Shown in pieces: positions 33,272-40,540 of a DNA stretch of 64,000 nucleotides; within the stretch, counting starts at the first letter, position 1; each line of letters starts with the position of its first letter. Under the pieces are notes generated by a model. The model saw nothing but the letters and a program-made list of their open reading frames with translations, was not told where the DNA came from and searched no databases. The DNA is from Escherichia phage AV116: the sequence record OR352946.1; one strand, given 5' to 3'. The position numbers and the translations under genes are program-made.

Positions 33272-33577
33272 TTATTTTCCTCGGCATTCTTTAATGAAAT
33301 TTTCTAGATTGGTAGATTCAATAGCTTTTTTACGAGCTTCTGCATGTTCTTCTTCGGACAATTTACATTTATAATTGACCCAGACATTATGGTCGAAACT
33401 AGTCGTGGCATATAATAACAATGCTCCAGCGAATAGCAAAAACGGTGATAAGAATACAAAACCAGGAACACCATCCATACTGTAAGCCTTTTGTAATACT
33501 GCAACAGAAAGAGCTGCGTAAAAAGGTGATGCAAATATTGTTAAAAGACCAATTCGGTTGGTTTCGCCTAATTTCAT
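33272..33577 (-). CDS. small membrane protein with C-terminal ENFIKECR tail
   Basis: two TM segments; tail NLENFIKECRGK. Confidence 0.5.
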   Translation of the reverse strand: MKLGETNRIGLLTIFASPFYAALSVAVLQKAYSMDGVPGFVFLSPFLLFAGALLLYATTSFDHNVWVNYKCKLSEEEHAEARKKAIESTNLENFIKECRGK

Positions 33578-33647: not shown

Positions 33648-34604
33648 TTATTTGAAAGGTTTTACCATATGAAAATTTTCTTTAAACCGTTTGATGTAAT
33701 CATTTTTGCCGAGCTTATGATACATAGCCACTACTTCATAATAGTTCTCGTATGCGTACTCACGGAACCAACCGGAGGTGATGCTTGTGCAGACTTTTTC
33801 TAATGCCATCATGAAACTGGCTTCAGGGTTAATTTTAAAGTCATTAGGAATCTGAGAACGTTCTAACGCTAGTACACATGATTCTTCGTATACGCCGGCC
33901 AATTTGACCATTTCCGGTAATGATTCGAACTTCTCGCGTGAGGTCATGACTTCAGAACCATCTTTCATATAAAATGTATACGCTGGACGGTCTGTTAGTG
34001 CAATGGCTTCATGAATAGTATCATGGTCATATGTATAGATGTCATCTTTAAAGAACGCACTTTTAGAAGTGTCAAGAACTGGGTGAGCATAATTCAAGGT
34101 TTCTTTCTGGCGTTTCAGCATAATTTCAGTAAGTTCATCGTTCAGTGTAACACCTTTACCACGAAGATACTGAATATGGTTCATAGTCTTTAAAAAGAAT
34201 GGATTATTTTTCTTGAAACGATGAGACATCTTAATTGCAAGACATATCTCAGGAGTTGCCCAGTAAAACCCGTTCAAACGGTCTTTAGTCAAATTTTTCT
34301 TGGCGTATTTTAAAAGGTCATAAGAAGACGTGAAATCTTCAGGAGTGAGTTCACCGACTAATTCACGGACATTAGTGATTGCCGGAACAATATATGCTTC
34401 AAAATGAGTTTCGCGTCCATTATGGAAGCATTTGAAAACTTGGACATCAGGGTTATCTTGGTGAACATATACACCCATCATTTGATTTTTGAATGCGTTC
34501 CAAGAACCTTGGTCCGCAATAAAGTCCCAATCACTATTTTTAATAGCGCTAGAATCAATAAGACCGTGATAGTGAAGTGCACGAGAACCAATAACTAACA
34601 TCAT
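33648..34604 (-). CDS. hypothetical protein, 318 aa
   Basis: long co-oriented ORF. Confidence 0.5.
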   Translation of the reverse strand: MMLVIGSRALHYHGLIDSSAIKNSDWDFIADQGSWNAFKNQMMGVYVHQDNPDVQVFKCFHNGRETHFEAYIVPAITNVRELVGELTPEDFTSSYDLLKYAKKNLTKDRLNGFYWATPEICLAIKMSHRFKKNNPFFLKTMNHIQYLRGKGVTLNDELTEIMLKRQKETLNYAHPVLDTSKSAFFKDDIYTYDHDTIHEAIALTDRPAYTFYMKDGSEVMTSREKFESLPEMVKLAGVYEESCVLALERSQIPNDFKINPEASFMMALEKVCTSITSGWFREYAYENYYEVVAMYHKLGKNDYIKRFKENFHMVKPFK

Positions 34605-34632: not shown

Positions 34633-34884
34633 TTAAATTTCACGACATGCGATATTATATTCATCCCAGAGGTCATCATGTGAAGCTTCTACCAATGGAA
34701 CGATTGTACCGTTTATGTCTTCATTATAAGGGCAAATTGTACAGTGCGCATCTTCGAATCGGATGCCTTTGTGTTCAGATTTTTTATAACGCATATCGAA
34801 TATCTTTGCAAACTTTTCACGAGTAATAGTTTTAGCAACCACTTTGGTTCCAATACTTTCGTAATAAATCATTGTGGACTCCAT
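34633..34884 (-). CDS. hypothetical protein with C-terminal N-I-A-C-R tail
   Basis: 83 aa; CTICPY and C-terminal EYNIACREI. Confidence 0.45.
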   Translation of the reverse strand: MESTMIYYESIGTKVVAKTITREKFAKIFDMRYKKSEHKGIRFEDAHCTICPYNEDINGTIVPLVEASHDDLWDEYNIACREI

Positions 34885-34934: not shown

Positions 34935-35132
34935 TTAGCAAGAATAACTAGATGATACCCAGCCTTGAACAGTGATACTATTGTGGGATAATGAGATCGC
35001 GTCCTGGAGATTCAGACCTGCGTTATCTTCAATCCATAATGTAACTTCTTCACGTTCTTCTGTTGCAATTTGGAACAGGTTTTCCAGGGCAGCTACTGCC
35101 GTACGTACAGCACAATCTAATTCACGAGACAT
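34935..35132 (-). CDS. small protein, C-terminal GWVSSSYSC family member
   Basis: 65 aa ending QGWVSSSYSC. Confidence 0.45.
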   Translation of the reverse strand: MSRELDCAVRTAVAALENLFQIATEEREEVTLWIEDNAGLNLQDAISLSHNSITVQGWVSSSYSC

Positions 35133-35141
35133 ATTGTTTCC

Positions 35142-35414
35142 TTAGCAAGTGTGAGAAGATGCGACCCAACCACCAGTTTCGAGGCTCAGGTTGTAGTCGT
35201 ATTGGTAAACGTCGGCCCATTCAGCATAGCCGTTTTTTGTACAACGTTCAAGATCAGCTTTAAGATGTCCGGGTGAATGATAGGTTCCGCCCATACCATA
35301 AGCCGGATACAAATTAAACGTGGTGTTTTGTTTATCAGCAATTTCTTTGGCAGCCTCAATAGCTGCATAGATTTTTGCTACAGCTTCAGCCAGTTCGGTT
35401 TGTTCTTTAGACAT
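35142..35414 (-). CDS. small protein, C-terminal GWVASSHTC family member
   Basis: 90 aa ending GGWVASSHTC; paralog of 35424..35729. Confidence 0.45.
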   Translation of the reverse strand: MSKEQTELAEAVAKIYAAIEAAKEIADKQNTTFNLYPAYGMGGTYHSPGHLKADLERCTKNGYAEWADVYQYDYNLSLETGGWVASSHTC

Positions 35415-35423
35415 AATGATTCC

Positions 35424-35729
35424 TTAGCACAACGCAGAAGACGAAACCCAAGCACCTTCAGTAATAACGTAACCATTACCTTCACGCTTAACATCGCCAC
35501 CATTATTTTCAATTTCATTTTTCATCCACTGGGATACGATTTCACCCTTAGGATAATAAGTACGACCGCTACCATAATCACCTACAGAAAATGATACGGC
35601 ATATTGGTCTGCGATCTTTGTTGCTTCTTCTTCGATACGTTCAGCTTGATTCAGAAGTTTATAAATTGCATCTGAAGCGGATTTGGCATCATTAAACTCT
35701 GGTACTTTAATTTCAATAATCTTACTCAT
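35424..35729 (-). CDS. small protein, C-terminal GAWVSSSALC family member
   Basis: 101 aa ending GAWVSSSALC. Confidence 0.45.
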   Translation of the reverse strand: MSKIIEIKVPEFNDAKSASDAIYKLLNQAERIEEEATKIADQYAVSFSVGDYGSGRTYYPKGEIVSQWMKNEIENNGGDVKREGNGYVITEGAWVSSSALC

Positions 35730-36085
35730 TTTCTACATTCCTTAATAAAGTTTTCGATTGTTTCATTTTCACGTTTAGCTAGAAGTTCATTATAACTAAT
35801 CATTTGAGAAGCGTAAATCTTTTTATTTTTCTTGTTATGGTTTATAAAATCGTAGTAAAAATAGACTACAGTACAAAATGATGCGATGGATGCAAAGGCT
35901 TGGGTATACCGTAAGTCCTGCCATTGGTCTGTGAATCCACCAGTGTTCCCTATAAATCCTAACACAACGCCGTCAATAAGAAATCCAACTAATCCAAAGG
36001 CAAATCCCATGCCAATACTCATAATAAAAATTAGAATGTTCTCACCAAGAGAAGGCCATATGGTTAAGAGTTGAGGCTTTTGCAT
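35726..36085 (-). CDS. membrane protein with C-terminal ENFIKECR tail
   Basis: two TM segments; tail IENFIKECRK. Confidence 0.5.
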   Translation of the reverse strand: MQKPQLLTIWPSLGENILIFIMSIGMGFAFGLVGFLIDGVVLGFIGNTGGFTDQWQDLRYTQAFASIASFCTVVYFYYDFINHNKKNKKIYASQMISYNELLAKRENETIENFIKECRK

Positions 36086-36459
36086 CTTATTTCCTTAACG
36101 AATTCCATAGCTTCTTCATATTCATACTTTTTAACAGCTTCATCATACTGAGCTTGGGCTTTTGCGCACTGAACTTTCCATTCTCTTAATCGGGCTCTGT
36201 GATGACGGCCTTGGTGCCAATATCCTACCCAATTAATAGGCATTAATAAAAACGGTACAATAAGTGGTGCGACGAACATTAATGAAAATGCTGCATCAGA
36301 CGATATAACTTCACTAGAATCTAAAACAGCTCCTATAATCATAAAGATTAAAAATGCTAAAGCTAAAATAGGGCCAAATAATACTTCATTTGGGATTAAT
36401 TTACGCTTGTATTCATACGCCCAGGGCTTACTTGGCATGTATAGGGTTGGCTTTGACAT
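36064..36459 (-). CDS. membrane protein with C-terminal K-E-I-R-C tail
   Basis: two TM segments; probable ATG at 36459 (track start 36489 is TTG). Confidence 0.4.
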   Translation of the reverse strand: MSKPTLYMPSKPWAYEYKRKLIPNEVLFGPILALAFLIFMIIGAVLDSSEVISSDAAFSLMFVAPLIVPFLLMPINWVGYWHQGRHHRARLREWKVQCAKAQAQYDEAVKKYEYEEAMEFVKEIRCKSLNS

Positions 36460-37030
36460 ATTCTCTACATTCCATAATAAATTGCTCAAGGATTAAATTG
36501 TTAGTGAAATTAGGACTAACAACCATAGTTTCATAAAGCGCATCAATAGCACTTAAAGCATCAACTCTTTTAAGCAAAGGCTTGCCTTCATACATAGTTT
36601 CAGAATCGATGATTAACGTAAAGTAATATTTTTTATTATCGACTAGAACTTCTGTATCGATATAAAACATATTAGACCTCAGAAGCTTATCTCTAAAGCC
36701 ATAATAATCTTCAGAGCGTTCGCTGATATATTCCCATTCAGTGTTTAAACAACAAACAGACCACGTAGGAGCAACGAAATCAGTGAATCTAATATCATGG
36801 TCTGCAACTAGTTTAGCAATAGCTCCGATATCATGAATCATAATACCTGGGGCTAATAAAGATTTTCTGCTATGGCTAGCCGTTTTCTCGGTGGTCTCAT
36901 AAGAAGACGACCAGTACCATTTACGTCCAGTTGCAACATATCGTAATGAATCAACTAAAGACGTAGGTGGATTTACCTTATCTCGGAACTCTTCGAACAT
37001 TGAGTCAATATCATTATTTTGGTTTCGCAT
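36428..37030 (-). CDS. hypothetical protein with C-proximal F-I-M-E-C-R motif
   Basis: ATG at 37030 (MRNQNND...); ..EQFIMECREYVKANPIHAK. Confidence 0.45.
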   Translation of the reverse strand: MRNQNNDIDSMFEEFRDKVNPPTSLVDSLRYVATGRKWYWSSSYETTEKTASHSRKSLLAPGIMIHDIGAIAKLVADHDIRFTDFVAPTWSVCCLNTEWEYISERSEDYYGFRDKLLRSNMFYIDTEVLVDNKKYYFTLIIDSETMYEGKPLLKRVDALSAIDALYETMVVSPNFTNNLILEQFIMECREYVKANPIHAK

Positions 37031-37079
37031 GTTAACTCCTTTATTATCCAAAAGGAGGACCGGAGTCCTCCGTATTATT

Positions 37080-39681: not shown

Positions 39682-39758
<77 letters not shown>

Positions 39759-40468: not shown

Positions 40469-40540
40469 TGGCCCTGGCTGGTTTCGATCCAGCTACCTAT
40501 CAGTTATGAGCTGACAGCTCTCCCATTGAGCTACAGGGCC
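40469..40540 (-). tRNA. tRNA with CAT anticodon (Ile-lysidine type or Met)
   Basis: hand-folded: acceptor GGCCCTG/CAGGGCC, D-arm GCTC-AATGGGA-GAGC, anticodon loop CTCATAA, T-arm GCTGG-ATCGAAA-CCAGC; CCA not encoded. Confidence 0.8.

Follow-up and report, generated by a model that had tools for sequence, protein, structure and literature searches.

A widespread phage gene cassette of small proteins with a common Cys-terminal tail and a putative nucleotidyltransferase

Nucleotidyltransferases (NTases) that are paired with small partner proteins have been described before. In HEPN/MNT systems, the NTase transfers one or more adenosine monophosphates (AMPs) to its partner at a conserved side-chain hydroxyl (PMC7641770; PMC11586414). 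For example, HepT receives three AMPs on a Tyr from its partner MntA, a minimal NTase with a GSX10DXD motif (PMC7641770). MenT enzymes act on the acceptor ends of tRNAs (PMC7450476; PMC10435456). Here, we describe a gene cassette in a 64,000-nucleotide stretch of Escherichia phage AV116 (record OR352946.1), hereafter the window. Three tandem open reading frames (ORFs) between positions 34935 and 35729 encode small proteins that end in a common tail, W-x-[SAP]-S-S-x-x-C, and are followed on the same strand by a gene for a 318-amino-acid protein with the Pfam domains DUF7277 and DUF7275, which looks like an active NTase. Neither the fold of this enzyme nor the pairing of an NTase with small partners is new; new are the tag, the array of multiple partners and a cassette specific to phages. 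The cassette marked by the tail is widespread among phages, and a literature search found no description of the tail, the small-protein families, DUF7275 or DUF7277.

The closest precedent for an NTase that modifies its neighbor is the type VII toxin–antitoxin (TA) system HepT/MntA, with which the cassette shares a minimal Pol-beta-type NTase, bearing G-S...D-x-D, encoded beside a small partner. Unlike HepT, the cassette partners are not HEPN RNases: the small proteins have neither the R-x4-6-H motif nor the acceptor Tyr of HEPN/MNT partners, their only invariant residues being Y, G, G, Y, W, S, S and C, and the proposed acceptor is the C-terminal W-x-x-S-S-x-x-C tail. Moreover, the cassette holds one to six partners of different families, its 318-residue enzyme carries the large conserved DUF7275 domain, and it was found only in phages or phage-like contigs. 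With MenA/MenT and AbiEi/AbiEii (DUF1814), the cassette has in common that the small partner gene or genes lie upstream on the same strand. However, its enzyme is not basic and lacks sequence membership in these families (Pfam gives DUF7275 and DUF7277 only, PADLOC nothing), and MenA partners are single and have no Cys tail. ANT(2'') and LnuA transfer a nucleoside monophosphate (NMP) to a hydroxyl, as is proposed here for the tail Ser, but their substrates are small-molecule antibiotics, and they possess neither partner proteins nor DUF7275.

Resemblances to three further types of system were considered and rejected. Ribosomally synthesized and post-translationally modified peptides (RiPPs), such as lanthipeptides with their Ser/Thr and Cys cores, likewise combine tandem small genes, a short common Ser/Cys segment and an adjoining enzyme gene, and some cassette members repeat the motif as multi-core precursors do. 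In the cassette, however, the conserved part is a C-terminal tag on folded proteins of 60–170 amino acids and not a leader with a variable core. The defining tailoring functions of a lanthipeptide or RiPP cluster were lacking: no lanthipeptide dehydratase or cyclase (LanB/C/M/KC/L), YcaO, radical-SAM enzyme, protease or exporter appeared among the precomputed Pfam families and annotations of the neighborhoods examined, a search that was not exhaustive. To our knowledge, no NTase-fold tailoring of such a RiPP motif has been described. In ThiS, MoaD and other ubiquitin-like proteins with their E1 enzymes, and in MccA/MccB of microcin C, a functional extreme C-terminus also stands alongside a nucleotide-transferring enzyme. 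Those proteins end in Gly-Gly (Asn in MccA) and are served by E1-like adenylyltransferases, whereas the cassette tails end in Cys and the enzyme has the Pol-beta NTase fold, so a ubiquitin-like or sulfur-carrier protein was rejected. Prenylation of the CaaX or Rab type was rejected too: it involves a Cys at position -4 or a CC/CXC end in a eukaryotic context, and here a single Cys forms the last residue in phages of Gram-negative bacteria.

The tail and the proteins that carry it

The window belongs to a Mosigvirus, an RB69-like T4-type coliphage, with 98–99% identity to vB_EcoM_G53, mar005P1 and similar phages. A first-pass annotation, made from the sequence alone, had reported three tandem small ORFs with a common ending. 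All three are present at the coordinates it gave, but they lie on the minus strand. ORF3 (35729..35424; 101 amino acids; equivalent to RB69ORF139c) belongs to a family named here after its YG(M/S)GG motif and has the C-terminal end TEGAWVSSSALC; its paralog ORF2 (35414..35142; 90 amino acids; equivalent to RB69ORF137c) has the end ETGGWVASSHTC. ORF1 (35132..34935; 65 amino acids; equivalent to RB69ORF136c) belongs to a different family (phrog_4882), lacks the YGMGG block and has the end TVQGWVSSSYSC. The endings GAWVSSSALC, GGWVASSHTC and QGWVSSSYSC of ORF3, ORF2 and ORF1 were read correctly, and TAA follows directly after each. On the minus strand, the tails occupy 35427..35450 in ORF3 (W-V-S-S-S-A-L-C; stop codon 35424-35426), 35145..35168 in ORF2 (W-V-A-S-S-H-T-C; stop codon 35142-35144) and 34938..34961 in ORF1 (W-V-S-S-S-Y-S-C; stop codon 34935-34937). 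Among the 525 ORFs of at least 30 amino acids in the window, the tail pattern occurs in these three only.

The tail is under strong selection. Comparison of the tail codons across the three genes confirmed the synonymous variation noted earlier: they read TGG GTT TCG TCT TCT GCG TTG TGC in ORF3, TGG GTC GCA TCT TCT CAC ACT TGC in ORF2 and TGG GTA TCA TCT AGT TAT TCT TGC in ORF1. The three ORFs and the first matches were aligned and used as query in a word-indexed search, which returned 53 proteins; HMMER, run exhaustively against 1.84 billion cluster representatives, returned 148 at E<=1e-3. In the pooled searches, 176 of 184 small proteins end in the tail (7 of the 176 with one extra residue), a proportion subject to some ascertainment bias, as the search profile included the tail; the remainder are truncated or frameshifted. 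The tail was also present in hits whose best-scoring stretch spanned the N-terminal two thirds only, and it was not used for selection in the enzyme-selected and internal-motif-selected locus tests described below. Although the overall identity among about 170 proteins is just 20–40%, W(-7), S(-4), S(-3) and C(0) show little or no variation, which strongly supports the claim of selection on the tail peptide. The constant part is W-x-x-S-S, and the Cys follows 0–2 residues later (157 long versions, 42 short, a few intermediate). In about ten members, W-[DE]-[SD]-S-G-C units are repeated inside the linker. The first-pass annotation had named a lack of recurrence in related phages as grounds for its refutation; instead, the tail clearly recurs, namely in T4-like phages, Pseudomonas phages of about 100 kb, Phapecoctavirus, Stenotrophomonas phages and jumbo phages of about 360 kb.

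The internal Gly-rich block pointed out in the same annotation is real and forms the core motif of a family. Proteins of the YGMGG family consist of an N-terminal helix (...IADE(H/Y)G), a short strand (x-F-x-F), the core AYGMGGTYYP, a variable, usually acidic linker and the tail; Y39, G40, G42 and Y45 are near-invariant among 148 sequences. The core motif lies on the minus strand at 35280..35300 in ORF2 (Y-G-M-G-G-T-Y; family consensus AYGMGGTYYP) and at 35550..35576 in ORF3 (Y-G-S-G-R-T-Y-Y-P). The AlphaFold2 model of ORF2, with a mean confidence score (pLDDT) of 95.4, comprises a long N-terminal helix and a small beta-sheet, with the Trp on the last strand and S-S-H-T-C in a terminal turn. 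Five long proteins of 313–1641 amino acids (P0056, P0068, P0076, P0109 and P0146) match the small-protein profile through many short repeats in the Gly/Tyr-rich core region; these are probably low-complexity matches unrelated to the family.

The description of the three ORFs as tandem paralogs holds for two of them. ORF2 and ORF3 are paralogs (BLASTP E=3e-6), and both match phrog_899 (E=5e-19 and 1.8e-22, respectively), whereas ORF1 matches another profile, phrog_4882 (E=7.7e-37), and shares with them only the tail and a similar helix-then-strand layout; neither profile has an assigned function. After the last 10 residues were trimmed, a profile of ORF1 orthologs and a profile of the ORF2/ORF3 family aligned with an hhalign probability of 2.4%. 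Since the ORF1 family thus has no detectable homology to ORF2 and ORF3 outside the tail, the tail is a portable module and more than a paralog signature. Likewise, 180 distinct tail-bearing ORFs of other phages fell into 11 clusters by tail-less BLASTP, including proteins of 139–155 amino acids ending in ...AWCSSSMSC, 144-amino-acid proteins ending in ...GWISSSICW and a 74-amino-acid family with the short version D-G-x-I-W-x-P-S-S-C. In practice, the tail acts as a module on different domains, although the helix-then-strand architecture that the families have in common may reflect a very distant common ancestry. At 50% identity, the tail proteins fall into well over 140 clusters; they are acidic (median isoelectric point (pI) 4.4; 90% below 5), and the small proteins match no Pfam, NCBIfam or PADLOC family.

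Tail-less variants also occur naturally. In the RB69 reference, ORF139c is a 71-amino-acid truncation ending in ...QWYEK, and in mar005P1, the ORF2 ortholog is frameshifted to 75 amino acids. Single array members can therefore be lost, which fits redundancy within the array.

The linked nucleotidyltransferase-fold enzyme

In the surroundings of two remote family members, on a 39.6-kb contig and a 370-kb jumbo-phage contig, a tandem pair of tail genes precedes a same-strand gene for a protein of about 300 amino acids with DUF7277 and DUF7275. The window has the same order: the tail array is followed by a 318-amino-acid ORF on the minus strand (33648..34604), the equivalent of RB69ORF134c. Its residues 2–101 match DUF7277 and its residues 120–305 match DUF7275, with Pfam scores of 97.3 and 260.6 bits against a gathering cut-off of 27.

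The tail array is almost obligately syntenic and co-oriented with the enzyme gene. For the linkage test, 80 IMG/VR loci, many of them from related T4-like phages, were fetched via the enzyme alone and scanned in six frames, and the tail pattern was counted among ORFs of 40–199 amino acids. Tail ORFs were found in 74 of the 80 loci, with one to six in each, or in 75 if a W-V-Q-S-S-C variant is counted. On the strand of the enzyme gene, the pattern ended 206 of the 1417 ORFs upstream and 1 of the 1248 ORFs downstream, and on the opposite strand it ended none of 2806 ORFs; 206 of 207 tail ORFs thus lie upstream on the enzyme strand. The gap between the array and the enzyme gene had a median of 356 nucleotides (range 2–1622). 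In the reciprocal test, 24 loci were fetched via a degenerate DNA pattern for the internal YGMGGTYY. The tail ended all 22 complete ORFs, and the enzyme gene lay downstream on the same strand in 16 of the 24 loci; the other eight end too early on that side, six of them on contigs already known to bear the enzyme.

The linkage spans T4-like phages, Otagovirus, Phapecoctavirus, Menderavirus and jumbo phages of about 360 kb. For example, three tails are linked to the enzyme in the Pseudomonas Otagovirus VCM and in an E. coli Phapecoctavirus, one in an Acinetobacter T4-like phage, and three in a Stenotrophomonas phage, there downstream of the enzyme gene. The enzyme family was found in 702 of 50,697 deposited phage genomes and comprises more than 2000 protein clusters. 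Bacterial, non-phage homes were considered and rejected: among 185,579 species genomes there were five loci, all on contigs of metagenome-assembled genomes and with tail ORFs wherever the flanking DNA sufficed. The cassette was found in phages or phage-like contigs only.

The enzyme has the catalytic motif and fold of a Pol-beta-type NTase intact, and it looks active. G6-S7, D25-x-D27 and E69 are invariant in 57 homologs, and even the most distant homologs retain G-S and D-x-D. These residues correspond to the signature hG[GS]...[DE]h[DE]h...h[DE]h of this superfamily, including the third carboxylate, with a spacing of 17 residues between G-S and D-x-D, where 9–13 is usual. In the model (pLDDT 92.9), the catalytic residues sit on strand 1/helix 1, strand 2 and a later strand, and structural comparison confirmed the alpha/beta NTase core fold, with ANT(2'') and LnuA among the hits. 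Beyond DUF7275 and DUF7277, there was no Pfam match at E<=1 and no PADLOC or NCBIfam model, so that the enzyme has no sequence membership in DUF1814, AbiEii or MenT. It is near-neutral (median pI 6.2) and not basic, compared with the acidic partners.

Conservation within the enzyme is highest in its helical C-terminal domain, DUF7275. K125, H128, K139, H194-D195, H198, E240-E241 and E248-R249 are invariant even in the most distant homologs, and the domain has no distinct structural match. DUF7275 might conceivably be an HD-like second active site. A further residue of the enzyme, Cys272 (KVCTSITSGW), is kept in all tail-linked enzymes examined; it is replaced by Ile in Streptomyces phage Limpid and Vibrio phage K406 (loci L091 and L097), which have no nearby tails, and kept in Bacillus phage G despite the lack of tails there. 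The sample behind this pattern is too small, and the seed patterns used for fetching loci contained this Cys. A thiol-thiol or shared-metal interaction of Cys272 with the tail is therefore only a lead.

Possible relations between enzyme and tail

We tentatively read these genes as a two-component phage cassette in which a single NTase recognizes and modifies one to six small acidic tail proteins, an interpretation to which we assign somewhat less than an even chance. Each small protein ends in the module (G-x-)W-x-[SAP]-S-S-(x0-2)-Cys-COOH, which would offer the enzyme a common handle for recognition. The enzyme would then modify the tail covalently, most plausibly with a nucleotidyl group (an AMP or other NMP, perhaps more than one) taken from a nucleoside triphosphate and placed on the hydroxyl of one of the two invariant Ser residues. 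Such nucleotidylylation is favored, with similar reserve, because one enzyme with many diverse tagged partners and internal motif repeats fits a substrate relation, because the fold relatives ANT(2'') and LnuA transfer NMPs to hydroxyls, because tRNA-binding toxins tend to be basic and this enzyme is not, and because the minimal NTase MntA oligo-AMPylates its neighbor HepT (PMC7641770). The Trp may anchor the last beta-strand. More speculatively, the thiol or carboxylate of the terminal Cys might aid docking or chemistry, for example by binding a metal or acting as a second nucleophile in the C-terminal domain, which is rich in His, Asp and Glu. Effector functions in host take-over or counter-defense could reside in the variable N-terminal domains, which the modification might switch on or off or stabilize.

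This reading extends the earlier suggestion that the tail is a tag or modification site, for which portability, internal repeats and the linkage to an NTase-fold enzyme give strong circumstantial support; the modification itself we only infer. A broader version, to which we give a substantial chance, though one well below even, is a virus-specific form of protein tagging. The NTase would write a nucleotide or oligonucleotide mark on a portable W-x-x-S-S-(x0-2)-Cys tag of interchangeable small acidic effectors, and the system would represent a new class of post-translational or RiPP-like modification. The His/Asp/Glu-rich DUF7275 could then possibly be a second catalytic or eraser site, and many large lytic phages would use the system early in infection, presumably for host take-over or counter-defense. 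Such an early purpose is weakly indicated by the accessory early-gene location, by an upstream sigma-70-like promoter-like site together with an annotated T4-type middle promoter in a near-identical phage, and by Nampt/Prs, Dcm, Sir2-like and Mom-like neighbors in distant phages.

Several observations weigh against modification of the tail by the enzyme. The acceptor residue is a guess, and the NTases known to modify proteins do so at Tyr or Thr rather than at a Ser-Ser-x-x-Cys tail. The AlphaFold2 model shows an ordered tail (pLDDT 87; strand and turn), which may serve in part as a structural element instead of being a free peptide. MenT1, TglT and MenT4, which are structurally closest to the enzyme, act on tRNA and are regulated by small upstream partners. 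There are no tail genes within 5 kb of the enzyme gene in Limpid, K406 and Bacillus phage G, whose enzymes are the most divergent, and one lineage (four loci) has the enzyme without nearby tail genes. As related phages recur among the 80 loci, the counts obtained from them are not independent events, and the breadth of phage groups is a stronger argument for the linkage than the locus counts. Finally, an unrelated 83-amino-acid gene, an annotated terminator and a promoter-like site lie between array and enzyme gene in this Mosigvirus, so that the two are not strictly one operon.

The main rival to tail modification is a MenA/MenT-like relation, which we regard as unlikely. The NTase would itself be the effector, for example as a MenT-like enzyme that extends or blocks the 3' ends of host tRNAs or modifies another host molecule, and the small acidic proteins would regulate it as antitoxins or inhibitors. 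The tail might dock in the active site, with the Trp mimicking a base and the Ser, Cys and carboxylate touching the metal/phosphate site, or it might trigger self-inactivation of the enzyme. There is precedent for this in the MenT toxins, which are controlled by small upstream MenA partners (PMC10435456; PMC11375011), and the gene order, with one or more small genes upstream of the NTase gene on the same strand, is TA-like. The partners are acidic, a property of many nucleic-acid mimics. Less easily reconciled with a TA system are the number of different partners, as many as six for one enzyme and of families that are unrelated except for the tail, and the internal motif repeats, which resemble multiple sites rather than one plug. 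Moreover, the gap to the enzyme gene often measures 300–1600 nucleotides and contains intervening genes, with a terminator annotated 3' of ORF1 in a near-identical phage; the enzyme lacks the basic character to which tRNA-binding toxins tend; and it belongs by sequence neither to DUF1814/AbiEii nor to any PADLOC model.

The ordered tail of the AlphaFold2 model, in which W-V-A forms a beta-strand and S-S-H-T a terminal turn at good confidence, would also suit a structural or host-directed role, which we consider improbable. The tail would complete the fold as last beta-strand and cap, or be read by a host factor such as a protease, chaperone or target protein, and tail and enzyme would be linked through a shared pathway or a common accessory-gene island and not by direct contact. 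In keeping with this, the cassette lies in hyperplastic accessory regions, where distant phages carry counter-defense-type Nampt/Prs, Dcm, Sir2-like and Mom-like genes. However, such a role leaves unexplained why an invariant Cys forms the very last residue, why the spacing from S-S to Cys varies by 0–2 residues, why the motif is repeated inside disordered acidic linkers and why the array is near-obligately adjacent to and co-oriented with one enzyme family across unrelated phage groups. At a slightly lower level still, we place a carrier or scaffold function, in which the flexible C-terminal Cys would be a thiol arm or sacrificial residue that carries or becomes a small molecule, with the NTase loading or activating the tail, by analogy with acyl- or sulfur-carrier proteins or with scaffold peptides whose C-terminal residue is tailored and released. 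The small acidic proteins do have an invariant terminal Cys and invariant Ser residues, and the second, highly conserved His/Asp/Glu-rich enzyme domain could be a second active site; CitX and MdcG, holo-acyl carrier protein synthases of Enzyme Commission class 2.7.7, provide a precedent in that they load small acidic carrier proteins, at a Ser, with a prosthetic group derived from a nucleotide. Against a carrier speak the diversity of the N-terminal domains, needless for a mere carrier, the lack of other biosynthetic, protease or export genes conserved beside the cassette in the neighborhoods examined, and the lack of sequence similarity to any carrier-protein family found. An artefact at the DNA level, that is, a repeated DNA segment or an embedded ribosome-binding site TGC TAA GGA, or chance, has a negligible probability and is refuted. 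The stop regions of two of the three ORFs do read TGCTAAGGAA and serve as the Shine-Dalgarno site of the next gene. In ORF1, however, Cys-TAA is followed by AACAG, with no coupled downstream gene; since ORF1 keeps the tail, the terminal Cys is not a by-product of the Shine-Dalgarno site. The synonymous codon differences, the protein-level conservation in about 170 proteins at 20–40% overall identity and the absence of the tail from the 2806 opposite-strand control ORFs argue in the same direction.

The cassette recasts 'hypothetical' hyperplastic-region genes of therapeutic T4-like coliphages as a system of two components that can be tested and whose 8-residue motif is sharply defined. Modification of the tail by the enzyme would mean a new post-translational chemistry in viruses, along with a small tag-and-enzyme pair that can be encoded genetically; inhibition of the enzyme by the tail would make it the first MenT-like toxin that is carried by phages and has polymorphic regulators. 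Both possibilities are relevant to the ways in which large lytic phages disarm their hosts or take them over.

Gene neighborhood and annotation

In the window, the three ORFs lie in a hyperplastic region, between e.3 and the remaining e.x genes. The ATG of ORF3 overlaps the stop codon of the upstream gene e.3 (ATGA). A sigma-70-like promoter-like site, TTTACG-17-TATAAT (35789..35817, minus strand; a consensus match only), lies inside e.3, upstream of ORF3, and at the equivalent position in the near-identical phage SA79RD, a T4-type middle promoter is annotated. Spacers of nine nucleotides on the minus strand separate ORF3 from ORF2 (35415..35423; TAA GGAATCATT ATG) and, in the same arrangement, ORF2 from ORF1 (35133..35141; TAA GGAAACAAT ATG). 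In the former, the Shine-Dalgarno site AAGGA spans the stop codon, and its position is consistent with translational coupling across the spacers.

Between the array and the enzyme gene, an 83-amino-acid ORF (34633-34884, minus strand; phrog_3723) contains C-T-I-C and has the C-terminal sequence ...ACREI. It was found in 12 of 80 loci, in close T4-like relatives only, and was rejected as a third, core component of the cassette. Four minus-strand ORFs that flank the cassette (36428-37051, 36064-36489, 35726-36085 and 33272-33577) have a different near-C-terminal motif in common, with the respective sequences ...ENFIKECRK, ...NLENFIKECRGK, ...EFVKEIRCKS... and ...EQFIMECREY.... Three of the four resemble small membrane proteins (e.3/e.4-like), and together they may constitute a second family with a conserved Cys-containing C-terminal segment.

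In public records, the cassette genes are 'hypothetical' or, in some cases, bear names like 'tail completion protein', 'prohead assembly scaffold protein' and 'helicase' that were evidently assigned automatically. In MK962756, OP870146, MT150133, MK295203 and OM386655, the labels are inconsistent, with tail ORFs named 'tail completion protein' or 'helicase' and the NTase 'prohead assembly scaffold protein', and they conflict with the findings presented here. A 'sulfurtransferase' label was also considered; it belongs to an e.4-like membrane protein two genes upstream and had no support in the libraries searched, which did not include Pfam.

Other genes recur near the cassette in more distant phages. 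In 19 loci, which represent three or more lineages (jumbo phages, Phapecoctavirus and an uncultured lineage), a gene of the Metallophos (Ser/Thr-phosphatase-like) family is found no more than 5 kb from the cassette (for example, L004 8647-9426 and L094 1540-2283, as well as L048, L051, L052 and L053); it is not a core component, and its product could be a remover of the proposed mark. RNA-repair and tRNA genes (Rnl1, PNKP, RNA ligase and tRNA nucleotidyltransferase) occur near the cassette in some distant phages (L004 689-3478; L037; L041; L091 3064-3723; L092 869-1762). As a general feature, an RNA-repair linkage (Rnl1, PNKP) was rejected, being confined to the jumbo-phage clade and two Aeromonas loci. 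In a Vibrio phage (L097 1216-4169) and a Stenotrophomonas phage (L096 1-1675), the enzyme gene is directly preceded by genes of the type involved in nicotinamide adenine dinucleotide salvage, which encode nicotinamide phosphoribosyltransferase, ribose-phosphate pyrophosphokinase and a Nudix hydrolase. This suggests that the cassette sits in counter-defense-type islands. In the window itself, genes for tRNA-Arg(TCT) (39682-39758) and tRNA-Met(CAT) (40469-40540) lie on the minus strand about 4–5 kb upstream of the cassette, as expected from T4-type synteny.

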